A DNA stretch of 10,025 nucleotides, from the IMG/VR virus record IMGVR_UViG_2693429733_000018. One strand, 5' to 3'. The notes below the pieces were generated by a model. The model ran no database searches and was not told the origin of the DNA. It saw only the letters and a program-made list of their open reading frames with translations. Origin of the DNA: a virus. Taxonomy: Duplodnaviria; Heunggongvirae; Uroviricota; Caudoviricetes. This document shows, one piece after another, positions 6,204 through 10,025 of the stretch (position 1 is its first letter; every line of letters starts with the position of its first letter). The translations under genes and the position numbers were made by a program.

Positions 6204-6280
6204 CCGCCATTAGCTCATCAGGAAAGAGCGCCAGCCTTCGAAGCTGGCTGCGCGGGGTTCAAGTCCCCGATGGCGGTCCA
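6204..6280 (+). tRNA. argN: tRNA-Arg (anticodon TCG), second copy
   Basis: Identical to 3795-3871. Confidence 0.8.
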
Positions 6281-6293
6281 TTATCTGCATCAT

Positions 6294-6370
6294 GCGTTGT
6301 TAGCTCAGCCGGACAGAGCAATTGCCTTCTAAGCAATCGGTCACTGGTTCGAATCCAGTACAACGCGCCA
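6294..6370 (+). tRNA. argO: tRNA-Arg (anticodon TCT), third copy
   Basis: Identical to 3885-3961. Confidence 0.85.
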
Positions 6371-6384
6371 CACTTATTTTCCCT

Positions 6385-6410
6385 GGCTCGCTTTTGCGGG
6401 CCTTTTTTTT
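6385..6410 (+). terminator. Intrinsic terminator after tRNA cluster C
   Basis: Identical to 3976-4001. Confidence 0.7.
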
Positions 6411-6432
6411 AAATGTCTCACAATTCAGACGG

Positions 6433-6469
6433 TTGACAGTTGTCTGTTTTGCGGGGAGTTTGTTAAAAG
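6433..6469 (+). promoter_or_regulatory. Promoter of module C
   Basis: Identical to 4024-4060. Confidence 0.45.
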
Positions 6470-6607
6470 AAACTGGCATGGTGAATCCCCCTGTGCGGAG
6501 GGGCAATCAGCGAGTAGGTATATGGGATAATCGCGGATTCAGGTGCTGGTACTGAATTCACCGGGAGGCACCCGGCATCATGCAATGGCACATAGCGCCA
6601 CTCTCCA

Positions 6608-6630
6608 GCCCTCTCCGGAGGGGCTTTTCT
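6608..6630 (+). terminator. Module C terminator, weakened (one C lost from the 5' arm gives a bulge; T tract reduced to TTTTCT)
   Basis: GCCCTC-TCCG-GAGGGGC then TTTTCTGTG; compare the perfect hairpin and longer T-rich tail at 4199-4234. Confidence 0.45.
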
Positions 6631-6819
6631 GTGCCGGATACATCACAGTTTCTGGAACCTTAGGTACTACAGTATCAGTCAGGGTGCTATATTTTCAGAT
6701 GTGATGAAAGCCTGTCAGCAGGCAGGGCGTATCGGAAATGACCCAGTAGAGAAAACGTTGACTCAGATACCGGTGCTGAGTTACCGGGAAACCGGCATCA
6801 CATGACCGCTATCCTTCCA

Positions 6820-6846
6820 GGCCCATCCGCTCCGGTGGGCCTTTTT
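6820..6846 (+). terminator. Intrinsic terminator-like hairpin upstream of module D (GGCCCATC...GGTGGGCC followed by T5)
   Basis: Stem of 6-8 bp and a T run read from sequence. Confidence 0.5.
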
Positions 6847-6899
6847 ACTGCAGAAAACAGGTTCCCCGTTAAATGCTATGTTGCTCACAATTCAGTAAG

Positions 6900-6936
6900 T
6901 TGACAGTTGCCTGTCAGACTGGGCATTTGTTAAAAA
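6900..6936 (+). promoter_or_regulatory. Promoter of divergent module D (TTGACA; extended -10 TGtTAAAAA)
   Basis: Same element order as modules A-C with diverged sequence; nearest such promoter upstream of the nanS-p/lysis genes. Confidence 0.4.
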
Positions 6937-7093
6937 AATTTCGCATGGTGAATCCCCCTGAGCGGAGGGGCGACTGGTGACGGTATAATCTCTGATTATC
7001 AAAACGAGAATGACGCGGGTTTAGTGGCACCGGGCTGAACTCACCGGGAGGCACCCGGCACCATGTGCATGATGATACAGATACGCGGCTTTA

Positions 7094-7117
7094 GCCCCTC
7101 TCCGGAGGGGTTTTCTT
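7094..7117 (+). terminator. Module D terminator (GCCCCTC-TCCG-GAGGGG followed by TTTTCTT)
   Basis: Hairpin conserved with modules A-C; shorter T tract. Confidence 0.6.
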
Positions 7118-7130
7118 GTGGGCAAAAAAA

Positions 7131-7152
7131 GCCCGCGCTGGGAGACGCGGGC
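7131..7152 (-). terminator. Minus-strand intrinsic terminator candidate (GCCCGCG-loop-CGCGGGC, followed by T7 on the minus strand)
   Basis: A7 run at 7124-7130 precedes the hairpin on the plus strand, so the T run follows it on the minus strand. Confidence 0.35.
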
Positions 7153-7345
7153 GGCAAGGAATAAACAATAAAACGTGAAGTAATATTTCAGCTGGCGAAT
7201 AATACCCCATAGTAATCACTCTGCGCAACTGCGCGGTCTTTTTCGAATTGCGGGCTGTCGTCTCTCTTCTGCCATTGTCCTGTAACTTCCGGACTTCAGC
7301 CCGCTCCTTATTTTACTCACAATATTATCCCGGCCGGGAGGATTC

Positions 7346-9199
7346 ATGGCATTTAAACACTATGACGTGGTCAGGGCGGCATCGCCGTCAGACCTTGCGA
7401 AACGACTGACACAAAAACTGAAGGAGGGCTGGCAGCCGTTTGGTAGTCCGGTGGCCATAACCCCTTATACCCTGATGCAGGCGATTGCAGCAGAAGGTGA
7501 TGTGGTCGTCAGTGGTGCAACTGAGCCGGAGTGGTACTACGTCATCGTACTGGCCGGGCAATCCAATGCCATGGCTTACGGTGAAGGTCTTCCGCTTCCG
7601 GATTCATACGATGCGCCCCATCCGCGCATTAAGCAACTGGCCCGTCGTAACACAGTGACTCCCGGTGGTGAAGTATGCGTATTTAACGACATCATTCCTG
7701 CTGACCATTGTCTGCATGATGTTCAGGATATGAGTACGATTAACCATCCCCGGGCTGACCTGAGCAAAGGGCAGTACGGCTGTGTCGGACAGGGCTTACA
7801 TATTGCCAAAAAACTGCTTCCGTATATCCCTAATAATGCGGGGATCCTGCTGGTACCATGCTGTCGTGGTGGTTCGGCATTCACCCAGGGCACGGAGGGG
7901 ACATTCAGCGAGTCCACGGGGGCCAGTCAGGATTCGGCTCGCTGGGGAGTGGGTAAGCCGTTATATCAGGATCTGCTTTTCCGCACGAAGGCAGCATTGC
8001 AGAAAAACCCGAAAAACGTTTTGCTGGCGATATGCTGGATGCAGGGGGAATTCGATATGACGAATGCCAGTTACGCCCAGCAGCCAGCAGCATTTCTTGC
8101 AATGGTACAGCAGTTCCGTGCTGACCTTGCCGGGCTGGCGGCGCAGTGTCACGGTGGAAGTCCGGCATCAGTCCCCTGGATTTGTGGCGACACGACATAC
8201 GCGTGGAAACAAGAACACGGTACGCAATATGAAGTGGTATATGGTGCATATAAAGGTAAAGAATCCCAGCAGATTTATTTTGTTCCCTTTATGACCGATG
8301 GTAGCGGAGTTAATACACCGACAAACAACCCGTCAGAAGATCCTGATATTGCCGGGTCTGGTTATTACGGTTCGGCATCCCGAACGAACAAAAACTGGGT
8401 ATCATCAAATCGCCCGACGCATTTCAGCTCATGGGCGCGTCGTGGCATTATTCCCGATCGTATGGCAACTGCTATTCTGAACGTAGCCGGTCGCACCTTA
8501 GCCTTCATTAGTGGTAAGGCACCGGAAATCAAACCCTCGCCCGGCGGCGACACGCCATCGGGGCCGTCTGAAGATGCATCCATACGCACAATCTCCCTGT
8601 TGCCGACAGCCGGAGACGCTGCTGCGCAGGGCTGGAGCATTAAGAATGGCGGAGTTCAGTTGTCAGATGGTGTATTTAAGATCACCAAGCAGAGCAATAA
8701 AGCCTGGTCCCTGACGCGCCCGGTGGATGACGCAGTCTCCCTGCTGACACGGGGTGGCAGACTGAGCTGTAAGTTTCGACTGTCAGGCGCACTGACCACC
8801 AACCAGTTCGGTCTGGGAATTTATCTGTATACCGATGTAGCGTTACCTGACGTCGTGGCGATGACCGGGACTGGTAACCCGTTCCTGATGTCGTTCTTCA
8901 CCCAGACCACAGACGGCAAACTGAATCTGATGCATCACAAGAAAGCAGGAAACACAAAGTTGGGCGAGTTCGGGAATTACAGTAACGACTGGCTGACGCT
9001 GGAGCTGGTGTTCACCGCCGGCAGTGCCACGGTTACTCCGAAACTGAATGGAGTGGCTGGCCCGGCATTCCAGGTCATAAAAGACAGTCTGACACTGGGG
9101 CTGAATGCGCTGACGCTGACGGATATTACCAAAAATGCAGCGTATGGCGTTGAGATAGAAAGTCTGGTGCTGGAGATAAATGCACCGGCATCATCATAA
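7346..9199 (+). CDS. nanS-p: Prophage sialate O-acetylesterase-like protein (NanS-p type): N-terminal DUF1737-like segment, SGNH/SASA esterase domain with GQSN motif, C-terminal domain of unknown function
   Basis: Strong RBS GGGAGGA 5 nt before the ATG; N-terminus MAFKHYDVV and motif VLAGQSNAM match my recollection of NanS-p esterases encoded downstream of stx in lambdoid prophages. Confidence 0.75.
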   Translation: MAFKHYDVVRAASPSDLAKRLTQKLKEGWQPFGSPVAITPYTLMQAIAAEGDVVVSGATEPEWYYVIVLAGQSNAMAYGEGLPLPDSYDAPHPRIKQLARRNTVTPGGEVCVFNDIIPADHCLHDVQDMSTINHPRADLSKGQYGCVGQGLHIAKKLLPYIPNNAGILLVPCCRGGSAFTQGTEGTFSESTGASQDSARWGVGKPLYQDLLFRTKAALQKNPKNVLLAICWMQGEFDMTNASYAQQPAAFLAMVQQFRADLAGLAAQCHGGSPASVPWICGDTTYAWKQEHGTQYEVVYGAYKGKESQQIYFVPFMTDGSGVNTPTNNPSEDPDIAGSGYYGSASRTNKNWVSSNRPTHFSSWARRGIIPDRMATAILNVAGRTLAFISGKAPEIKPSPGGDTPSGPSEDASIRTISLLPTAGDAAAQGWSIKNGGVQLSDGVFKITKQSNKAWSLTRPVDDAVSLLTRGGRLSCKFRLSGALTTNQFGLGIYLYTDVALPDVVAMTGTGNPFLMSFFTQTTDGKLNLMHHKKAGNTKLGEFGNYSNDWLTLELVFTAGSATVTPKLNGVAGPAFQVIKDSLTLGLNALTLTDITKNAAYGVEIESLVLEINAPASS

Positions 9200-9283
9200 A
9201 AAGTGAGCCAGCCAAATGGAAGGTATCGTTAAACTCACCGGTAGTGTCAGTGGGTCGTCTGAGATGCCTGCATGAGTTATCAG

Positions 9284-9314
9284 AGCCATCAGTACTTAAC
9301 TGGTGGCTTTTTTT
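9284..9314 (+). terminator. Intrinsic terminator-like hairpin between nanS-p and the holin (9-bp stem with one G-U, 7-nt loop, T6)
   Basis: AGCCATCAG-TACTTAA-CTGGTGGCT followed by TTTTTT. It lies inside the N-terminal extension of ORF 9272-9565, supporting the internal holin start at 9350. Confidence 0.55.
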
Positions 9315-9349
9315 ATTGTTGTCAGCTTCCGGATAACGGGAGACGGGGT

Positions 9350-9565
9350 ATGTACCAGATGGAAAAAATCACAACAGGTGTGTCATACACCACGTCAGCG
9401 GTGGGAACGGGCTACTGGTTCCTGCAGTTGCTGGACAGGGTTTCCCCGTCTCAGTGGGCGGCAATAGGCGTGCTGGGGAGTCTGCTGTTTGGGCTGCTGA
9501 CATATCTGACTAACCTGTATTTCAAAATCAGAGAGGACCGTCGTAAGGCTGCACGGGGAGAGTAA
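9350..9565 (+). CDS. Class II holin, phage-21 S-type pinholin (71 aa; possible dual start at Met1/Met4)
   Basis: [28 protein letters not shown]...[13 protein letters not shown] resembles my recollection of S21; GGAG-type RBS upstream of 9350; two hydrophobic segments and a charged C-terminus. Confidence 0.8.
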
Positions 9566-9569
9566 TTCA

Positions 9570-9884
9570 ATGACTCAAAACTATGAACTGATTGTGAAAG
9601 GGATCCGCAATTTTGAGAATAAAGTTACGGTAACTTTAGCGTTACGGGACAAAAAACGCTTTGACGGTGAAATTTTTGACCTGGACATCTCGCTGGACCG
9701 TGTTGAAGGTGCCGCGCTGGAGTTTTATGAGGCAGCAGCCAGAAGGAGCATCAGACAGGTCTTCCTGGATGTTGCTGCCGGGTTATGTGAAGGGGACGAG
9801 CTGTTGCCAGAAACGCGCCCCTGTTCAGAGGCGCGGTATACCATAAAAATTAACAGTTCTGATAACTCGATTACGGGTTGTTAG
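9570..9884 (+). CDS. Hypothetical protein between holin and endolysin; YdfR-like (Qin prophage, DUF1327 by recollection), function unknown
   Basis: GGGGAGAG RBS; start 4 nt after the holin stop. Family assignment rests on recalled gene order essQ-ydfR-rrrQ in E. coli K-12 and is not verified. Confidence 0.6.
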   Translation: MTQNYELIVKGIRNFENKVTVTLALRDKKRFDGEIFDLDISLDRVEGAALEFYEAAARRSIRQVFLDVAAGLCEGDELLPETRPCSEARYTIKINSSDNSITGC

Positions 9885-9939
9885 CTTTTTGCAGTTGGCT
9901 TTCCAGTATCTTTCATTGGTAGCATCCTGATAAATATCC

Positions 9940-10025
9940 ATGAGCGCAAAAATCAAATACGGCCTGTCAGCTGCTGTTCTGGCGCTGATTGCAAAATGGC
10001 ATCTGAATCGATCGCAGTTTGGCAT
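9940..10025 (+). CDS. Endolysin N-terminus (partial, runs off the window end), probable SAR-type lysozyme
   Basis: MSAKIKYGLSAAVLALIA... is a hydrophobic Gly/Ala/Leu-rich N-terminus typical of signal-arrest-release endolysins that pair with pinholins; only 28 codons visible. Confidence 0.5.
   Translation, partial: MSAKIKYGLSAAVLALIAKWHLNRSQFG

Follow-up and report, generated by a model that had tools for sequence, protein, structure and literature searches.

The subject of this analysis is a nanS-p gene, encoding a prophage sialate O-acetylesterase, in a stretch of DNA from the IMG/VR virus record IMGVR_UViG_2693429733_000018. That stretch, called the window from here on, is 10,025 bp long and is the whole of scaffold CXDM01000170.1 in the Shigella sonnei draft assembly GCA_001253895.1. 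A first-pass annotation, made from the letters alone, had flagged its interval 7118-9199 as holding an intact nanS-p-like esterase gene with a strong ribosome-binding site. Both are there. The interval contains a single long open reading frame (ORF) that begins with ATG and is preceded by 228 nt of non-coding leader, counted from the flagged start at 7118, and its Shine-Dalgarno sequence is kept in alignments with phage 933W, phage 86 and the prophage of E. coli H3.

Upstream of the gene stand units of the STnc100 small RNA (sRNA) family and three tRNA genes; downstream stands a holin gene. Farther to the left lies a second, truncated copy of nanS-p, cut by the insertion sequence (IS) IS600. 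Table 1 collects these features; in it, locus A denotes the prophage remnant that holds the truncated copy, and locus B the prophage that holds the intact one. The explanation that we put forward, and hold as a whole to be highly probable, is that 7346-9199 encodes an intact NanS-p allele, a sialate 9-O-acetylesterase from the late region of a lambdoid prophage, built of three modules and expected to be expressed late under the control of Q, and that the second copy belongs to a separate locus.

Table 1. Features of the window, in order of position (aa, amino acids; E, expectation value).
Feature	Position	Strand	Evidence or remark
Further STnc100 (RF02076) units	1504-1693, 4038-4227, 6447-6636		Rfam
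Scaffold gap	1710		N in public record; STnc100-to-Q-internal junction
nanS-p' of prophage remnant A, cut short after its first 43 codons (DUF1737 only)	4849-4978	+	Reads into IS600, giving a 57-aa product
IS600 (IS3 family), 1138 bp of the element	4976-6113	-	NCBIfam transpos_IS3, E 1e-99; annotated IS600 in E. coli matches
Scaffold gap	6114		N in public record; contig 2, ending in locus A, stops before it and contig 3, with locus B and the intact gene, starts after it
Locus B tRNA cluster: ileZ-type (CAT), argN-type (TCG), argO-type (TCT)	6121-6370	+	ARAGORN; upstream of STnc100 units
Degenerate STnc100 unit	6675-6848		Rfam
"Module D" of the first-pass annotation: STnc100-family sRNA unit (RF02076)	6914-7123	+	Rfam 161 bits, E 5e-37; terminator 7093-7112
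nanS-p leader	7124-7345	+	Alignment with 933W, phage 86, H3; terminator scan
Shine-Dalgarno GGAGG	7337-7341	+	4 nt 5' of the nanS-p ATG
nanS-p coding sequence (prophage sialate O-acetylesterase, intact)	7346-9199	+	ORF list, Pfam, PDB matches; 617 aa + stop
DUF1737 domain	7352-7495	+	aa 3-50; Pfam PF08410, E 1.3e-15
NanS-like SASA/SGNH esterase domain	7520-8482	+	aa 59-379; phmmer alignment to 3PT5
C-terminal lectin-like jelly-roll domain (Pfam DUF6645), putative carbohydrate-binding module	8606-9184	+	aa 421-613
P21-type class II holin S, next gene after nanS-p	9350-9565	+	Pfam PF04971, E 9e-33; annotated in E. coli H3 and APEC O18

The public record differs from the window, base by base, at two positions only. 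These are 1710 and 6114, where the record has N and the window has A. The window is made of three contigs joined by single-N gaps (1-1709, 1711-6113 and 6115-10025). The sequence of nanS-p is reliable, since the gene lies wholly within the third contig and recurs unchanged in two sister scaffolds, L008 and, apart from a gap 5' of the start, L010. In the former, the stretch 6115-10023 is present with a nanS-p that is 100% identical; the latter is 100% identical to the window from 7328 on, its own N gap lying just 5' of the nanS-p start. The exact 617-aa protein is already in the National Center for Biotechnology Information (NCBI) collection, as "YjhS / SASA family carbohydrate esterase [Shigella sonnei]".

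The domain search that the first-pass annotation had suggested finds both DUF1737 and SASA. Pfam, in fact, divides the product into three domains (PF08410 DUF1737, PF03629 SASA and PF20350 DUF6645), all scoring above their gathering thresholds. This is the architecture by which NanS-p proteins are known: a DUF1737 domain, a SASA catalytic domain and an extra domain at the C-terminus. An NCBIfam search gave no model matching the esterase.

In the catalytic domain, residues 59-379 match E. coli NanS (YjhS; PDB 3PT5) at 58% identity (E 4e-122, phmmer against solved structures), with the Pfam SASA match spanning aa 66-262. Four motif blocks are found: GQSNA at 71-75, containing Ser73; RGGSAF at 174-179; MQGEFD at 232-237; and RPTHFS at 356-361, containing His359. 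They align with residues 17-21, 120-125, 178-183 and 299-303 of 3PT5, whose published blocks are 17 GQSNA 21, 120 RGGSAF 125, 178 MQGEFD 183 and an R-x-SHFS ending at 303 (PMC10792757). Thus, the GQSN motif noticed in the first-pass annotation is confirmed at aa 71-74, and the SGNH catalytic residues, whose absence on alignment it had named as the finding that would speak against an esterase, are present in all four blocks. Across 26 homologues that are 59-89% identical to the window protein, Ser73, Gly175, Gln233-Gly234-Glu235, Asp237 and His359 are invariant.

Here, Ser73 of GQSNA would be the nucleophile and His359 of RPTHFS the base, with Gly175/176 placed in block II and QGEFD forming block III. 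In 3PT5, a main-chain oxygen stands in for the acidic residue of the catalytic triad (PMC10792757), and the window esterase, like E. coli NanS, would probably also do without one. Block IV of the window protein reads RPTH, which Pascal et al. singled out as a peculiarity of the allele of the Shiga toxin (Stx) 2 phage 86 (PMC10462455). The SGNH alpha/beta/alpha fold is assigned because of the 58% sequence identity to 3PT5. That structure also ranked first when an AlphaFold2 (AF2) model was searched against the PDB with Foldseek (E 1.4e-24; template modelling score, TM, 0.70; root-mean-square deviation, rmsd, 6.3), the esterase part of the model being mostly below 50 in predicted local distance difference test (pLDDT). 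The likeness to chromosomal NanS covers the catalytic domain, the four blocks, the Ser/His pair and the lack of an acidic residue. It ends there, since chromosomal NanS has neither DUF1737 nor a C-terminal lectin-like domain, and belongs to the nan regulon rather than to a prophage late operon.

The C-terminal region of roughly 250 aa had been left unassigned, with the suggestion that it could be a carbohydrate-binding domain. It can be assigned. Pfam places DUF6645 at aa 467-577 (E 3.4e-19), and aa 421-613 match PDB 6YP6, the solved C-terminal domain of the NanS-p of phage phi24B, by sequence (E 4e-30). In the AF2 model, which was built from a 26-sequence alignment and has a mean pLDDT of 62 for the whole protein, aa 415-612 reach about 85-92. 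This well-modelled beta-sandwich, the outcome of the structure prediction that had been recommended for the region, can be superposed on 6YP6, the second-ranked Foldseek match (E 3.5e-23, TM 0.83, rmsd 2.1 Å over 214 columns). The matches that follow are the L-type lectins VIP36 and ERGIC-53, the sialic-acid-binding domain of Vibrio cholerae sialidase (2W68), and, from clostridial neurotoxins, the half of the binding domain that is lectin-like.

The suggestion of carbohydrate binding, in turn, is upheld in the form of a predicted lectin-like fold of the carbohydrate-binding-module type, and for the family it was already in print. Published accounts of the C-terminal domain of NanS-p call it a jelly roll of lectin-like type that is probably a carbohydrate-binding module (PMC8065619, PMC10462455; Franke et al. 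2020, PDB 6YP6 cited there). In vb_24B_21 of phi24B, the aromatic residues Y510, Y515, Y540 and F611 have been proposed as the carbohydrate site (PMC10462455). These align with F488, Y493, F518 and L584 of the window protein, of which three are aromatic. The domain, a concanavalin-like jelly roll homologous to the solved one of phi24B, would probably bind glycans.

The relationships of the window allele differ from module to module. Compared with a P0062-type allele, its DUF1737 (aa 1-50) is 100% identical, its esterase (aa 59-380) 74.8% and its C-terminal domain (aa 421-613) 36.5%. Compared with Stx2 phage 86, the esterase and the C-terminal domain are each 95% identical, and DUF1737 is unlike, phage 86 having an N-terminus of the 933W type and a longer linker. 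Compared with 933W, the figures are 70%, 70% and 37% from the first module to the last, and 56% overall. Judged by these alignments, the window allele is a domain mosaic. Between its DUF1737 and its esterase the linker (7496-7519, aa 51-58) is short, the linkers of 933W, phage 86 and most other alleles being longer by about 15-20 residues, and there is no S-S-P motif in either linker of the protein (aa 51-62, EGDVVVSGATEP; aa 381-420).

The neighborhood is equally familiar. The order tRNAs, STnc100, nanS-p, P21-type holin and DUF1327 is shared by the window, E. coli H3, APEC O18, 933W and phage 86. In H3 and APEC O18, the order can be followed further: Q, a 65-aa ORF, a DNA methylase, tRNA Ile/Arg/Arg, a spacer, the esterase, holin, YdfR, lysozyme, spanin, and a lambda-like terminase and portal. 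The tRNA set of locus B is annotated as tRNA-Ile/Arg/Arg in the H3 and APEC O18 prophages, and 933W has the same set. Two true tandem STnc100 units precede nanS-p in locus B, as they do in H3.

The first-pass annotation had called this an stx-negative arrangement, remarking that no stx genes lie between module D and nanS-p. No remnant of stx is present anywhere in the window; 933W stxAB gave chance matches only, by tblastn and by blastn. The special status that the remark implied is another matter, as the stx-free layout is the common one. Nor should stx be expected at that place. In 933W and phage 86, STnc100 comes after stxB and before nanS-p, and AsxR follows it on the other strand; window positions 6885-7453 align with the stxB-nanS-p spacer of 933W. 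STnc100 and nanS-p are a conserved pair, and the stx cassette, where there is one, lies upstream of both, between the argO-type tRNA and STnc100. Because STnc100 stands directly upstream of nanS-p even in Stx phages, the lack of stx between module D and nanS-p is normal for phages of this type. A preprint describes the same layout of sRNA, esterase, sRNA and holin, and finds less than 3% of chromosomal PasA loci next to stx (10.64898/2026.05.13.724894).

The leader of nanS-p has two parts. Positions 7124-7220 form a spacer of divergent sequence, which has a terminator hairpin on the minus strand at 7152-7131. Positions 7221-7345, where the phage matches begin, are conserved with Stx phages and include a terminator-like hairpin at 7221-7236. 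With this one, a terminator scan finds three such hairpins between the tRNA cluster and the nanS-p ATG, the others being at 6607-6625 and 7093-7112. On account of these three, nanS-p is most likely transcribed from the Q-antiterminated late transcript; no consensus promoter is found on the plus strand within 6371-7345. Transcription of nanS-p would then accompany that of the late genes after antitermination by Q on induction. In E. coli that produces Shiga toxin (STEC), nanS-p rises with the late genes when phage is induced (PMC10462455, PMC8065619). The idea that STnc100 might itself be the pR'-tR' leader RNA was rejected, as in 933W it follows stxB, a long way from where pR' is annotated. 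Terminators resembling tR' stand directly after Q in the window, at 492-511 and 2121-2140.

The minus strand at 7124-7212 occupies the place of AsxR in 933W and might encode a small RNA, ending in the strong hairpin at 7152-7131 and a U run. It gives a sub-threshold Rfam match to OmrA-B (25 bits, E 0.026, against a gathering score of 40), has a fold z of -1.7, which is not exceptional, and is unrelated to AsxR in sequence.

Prophages with this arrangement are widespread. Of 5426 complete E. coli genomes, 757 contain the stx-free block 6371-9199, with its two STnc100 units and nanS-p, at 80% coverage or more. APEC O18 and the O7:K1 strain CE10 are among the best of these matches, which reach 99.2-99.5% identity; the identity of locus B to E. 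coli prophages is 99.2%. The window protein belongs to a 90% identity cluster of 3161 members, in which all other named members listed are Escherichia coli, and a few amino-acid differences confine its exact sequence to a small number of S. sonnei drafts. Non-Stx prophages were already known to carry nanS-p, in alleles that are active (PMC10462455, PMC8065619). The window gene departs in nothing from the known NanS-p family; it is an ordinary copy, already catalogued.

Its closest relatives are prophages of non-STEC E. coli (H3, APEC O18, CE10 and others), which are 99.2-99.5% identical in nucleotides over the tRNAs, both STnc100 units and nanS-p, have the same order from Q to lysis, and differ only in host species. 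Among phages, the best match to the gene is phage 86, at 95.4% of nucleotides. Its NanS-p (YP_794050; "NanS-p sequence 20" in PMC10462455) shares RPTH in block IV, and the phage likewise has STnc100 upstream and holin and YdfR downstream. It differs in its N-terminus, where the window has the P0062-type DUF1737 and the short linker, and in carrying stx2AB upstream of STnc100, which the window does not. More distant are the alleles of 933W (L0105 / z1466), a proven esterase for 5-N-acetyl-9-O-acetylneuraminic acid (Neu5,9Ac2; PMC8065619), and of phi24B (vb_24B_21 / gp84). They share the three-domain architecture, the SGNH blocks and the place between STnc100 and holin. Beyond the identities given above, the window differs in having L584 in place of one of the four proposed binding-site aromatics, in lacking the S-S-P linker motifs, and in having no homologue of AsxR upstream of nanS-p.

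What such a gene would do can be described from its relatives. In the prophage at locus B, Q is followed by a small ORF, a DNA methylase gene, the tRNA Ile/Arg/Arg set, a pair of STnc100 units, nanS-p, and then holin and lysis genes, which is the late region of an Stx phage minus its stx cassette. NanS-p proteins remove 9-O-acetyl groups from Neu5,9Ac2 and from mucin glycans, enabling use of sialic acid (PMC8065619), and we infer that the window enzyme would do the same, with Neu5,9Ac2 free or on mucin glycans, to leave sialic acid in usable form. Its DUF1737 corresponds to the module that anchors the protein to capsid hexons in phi24B, and NanS-p may also travel on virions.

Several observations count against this picture. 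The esterase domain of the AF2 model is of low confidence, with aa 72-202 and 321-367 mostly below 50 in pLDDT. One of the four residues corresponding to the proposed glycan-binding aromatics is a leucine, and identity to the crystallised domain is only 37% over the C-terminal domain. Between DUF1737 and the esterase there is only a short linker, from which S-S-P, the motif at which phi24B gp84 is proposed to be cleaved, is missing.

In the alternative that survives best, NanS-p would be mainly structural, a capsid decoration anchored by DUF1737 that displays or releases esterase and lectin on virions, and not a means of feeding the lysogen. This view is encouraged by phi24B, whose gp84, a NanS-p homologue, was located on capsids by cryo-electron microscopy and proteomics, with DUF1737 as its hexon-binding domain and with proteolytic processing between domains, the S-S-P motif being only a proposed processing site (bioRxiv 10.64898/2026.04.10.717836). 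It also suits the place of nanS-p, which in H3, APEC O18, 933W and phage 86 is always in the late region, adjoining the lysis genes. However, the prophage relatives H3 and APEC O18 carry lambda-like head genes (terminase, portal, S49 protease) and not the T=9 capsid of the podovirus phi24B, the proposed cleavage motifs are missing from the window protein, and NanS-p has been documented to give an advantage in growth on Neu5,9Ac2 (PMC8065619). A mainly structural role is a possibility to be taken seriously, but an unlikely one; the structural and nutritional roles are, of course, not mutually exclusive.

A combination of the two can be imagined by analogy with phi24B, and we regard it as rather doubtful. 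In lambda-like (siphovirus-type) prophages, NanS-p might also be a virion protein by way of DUF1737, with a short, uncleaved linker keeping esterase and lectin tethered to the capsid. If this were true, the particle would carry both a mucin-sialate-modifying and a mucin-binding activity. The virion reading would then carry the phi24B preprint over to another type of capsid, and would take in some Shigella along with non-STEC E. coli in their thousands.

The enzyme reading concerns the intact copy; the truncated one has a different history. Positions 4849-4978 and 7346-7475 are identical at 119 of 130 nt (91.5%), with five synonymous codon changes and four amino-acid changes. The regions 5' of the two ATGs are unrelated. 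The first-pass annotation had described a second copy, about 90% identical at its 5' end and inactivated by the IS, and this description holds: an IS600 end, TGAGGTG..., begins at 4976 and cuts nanS-p'. The element there has an IS3-type transposase (orfA/orfB), a TG...CA end abutting the target, and near-identity to IS600. Complete S. sonnei genomes have a full-length IS600 at this very site, to which it is 99.6-99.8% identical.

In those genomes (for example 53G, HE616528), the order is RusA, Q (284 aa), tRNAs, DUF3927, STnc100, iraM, nanS-p' and a full IS600, followed by unrelated genes on the opposite strand. The fused 57-aa product of nanS-p' occurs on 981 contigs, all named Shigella sonnei or Shigella. 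Locus A is an old prophage remnant fixed in S. sonnei, whose nanS-p copy was disrupted there by IS600. Between its STnc100 and nanS-p', at 4253-4588 on the minus strand, lies a PmrD-family ORF of 111 aa, annotated as anti-adapter IraM in E. coli prophages.

Between the two copies stands one of the N gaps. Both gaps fall at junctions that make no biological sense: at 1709/1710, STnc100 runs into the middle of Q, and at 6113/6115, IS600 stops 1138 bp in, 6 bp before a tRNA-Ile. In complete S. sonnei genomes, IS600 continues past the point where the record has N. The apparent truncation is an assembly effect, since contig 2 simply ends inside IS600. As an exact 41-mer, the IS600/tRNA junction has no match in a set with a single genome for each species, and among complete E. 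coli genomes none has most of 4250-6450 in one place. The missing matches had at first suggested a unique rearrangement; the N at 6114 explains them better. Similarly, the ORF at 1600-2040, an apparent fusion of STnc100 and Q, is an artefact, because the second copy of Q starts right at a scaffold gap. The 3' half of Q stands twice in the window, at 89-388 and 1710-2009 (100% identical), as does the part with the terminator downstream (406-524 and 2035-2153, 96%).

The contig ends repeat one another. In complete genomes, locus A has a single STnc100, to which 1463-1709 as well as 3997-4243 map, and the stretch from 3706 to about 4170 recurs in locus B, at 6115 to about 6580. Part of the multiplicity of STnc100 modules in the window is assembly redundancy. 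The copy at 3984-4243 is a hybrid, like locus B in its 5' flank and first 55 nt or so and like locus A at its 3' end; the switch falls in a 130-bp core that is identical in all STnc100 copies. This may be either an assembly path switch or a natural recombinant, and it fits a path switch induced by repeats. In L008 and L010, which come from near-identical isolates of one and the same project, the same modules appear in a different order, with N gaps at each odd junction (2232 and 6087 in L008; 1096-1099, 5238-5248 and 5974-6164 in L010). The simplest reading is that there are two separate loci, the remnant at locus A with the broken copy and the prophage at locus B with the intact one.

Against this, it might be held that the scaffold order is right, with locus B, a newly acquired lambdoid prophage, sitting beside remnant A, separated by IS600 and a short gap, having arrived by recombination at shared tRNA, STnc100 and Q repeats. 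Modules shared in this way do let lambdoid prophages recombine, one STnc100 copy (3984-4243) is a hybrid of the two loci, and three independent scaffolds (L008, L010 and L009, the window record) all unite pieces of A and B. Yet the three disagree on the order of those pieces, their contig ends duplicate one another, and the shared repeats alone (the 130-bp STnc100 core, 300 bp of 100% identical Q, the tRNA segments) can yield false links and hybrid paths in short-read assembly. We think such adjacency improbable, and keep to two separate loci.

Even with a sound gene at a separate locus, the ORF could be intact and the enzyme inactive, or directed at another substrate, the allele being divergent (56% identical to 933W overall, with RPTH in block IV). 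Its block IV is, indeed, unlike that of all other Stx2a-phage alleles (PMC10462455), and its C-terminal domain is 37% identical to that of 933W. But nothing has changed in the nucleophile, the base or blocks I-III, all of them invariant, the identity to the active E. coli NanS is 58%, the allele is kept intact at 99% identity in its cluster of 3161 sequences, and all tested NanS-p alleles of EDL933 and O104:H4 are active (PMC8065619). An inactive or redirected enzyme is very improbable, and activity on O-acetylated sialic acid is the preferred expectation.

The first-pass annotation had also taken the two copies to be neighboring paralogs within 3 kb on one element, in ongoing local turnover; in the window as given they do lie 2.4 kb apart with 91.5% identity at the 5' end, but this reading is hardly credible when the path between them crosses an N in the public record, leaving distance and adjacency not established, the contig with the broken copy ends inside an IS600 that complete S. 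sonnei genomes show in full and followed by unrelated genes, sister scaffolds arrange the same pieces differently, again over N gaps, the sequences upstream of the two copies are unrelated, and the IS600/tRNA junction is in no complete E. coli genome and no species-representative genome.

The biological weight of the finding is small: a few S. sonnei isolates are seen to have yet another intact nanS-p allele, and its type is very common among the stx-negative prophages of E. coli. Should the enzyme be active, and should S. sonnei still catabolise sialic acid, the acquired prophage could open access to the O-acetylated sialic acids of mucin. What can be learned for practice is technical. In the window, a short-read scaffold, a base had been put in place of each N gap, and a false junction of a truncated IS with a tRNA was the result. 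The base-filled gaps also made two nanS-p copies seem closely linked, falsely, and raised the number of repeated tRNA, STnc100 and Q modules beyond the true one.

Some smaller features accompany these loci. The tRNAs at 555-630, 3712-3787 and 6121-6196 are called tRNA-Met (CAT) by ARAGORN and tRNA-Ile by RefSeq; their counterpart in 933W is ileZ, which reads AUA, and each of these ileZ-type tRNAs heads the phage cluster ileZ-argN-argO. The spacer between nanS-p and holin (9200-9349) gives no credible Rfam match; it contains a 12-pair hairpin followed by a T run (9282-9310), and it is at this position that a 2026 preprint places the PasA/PasC sRNAs (10.64898/2026.05.13.724894). Just after the first copy of Q, at about 418-446, a reading by eye finds a site resembling a late promoter, TTGATT-17-TAAATT.

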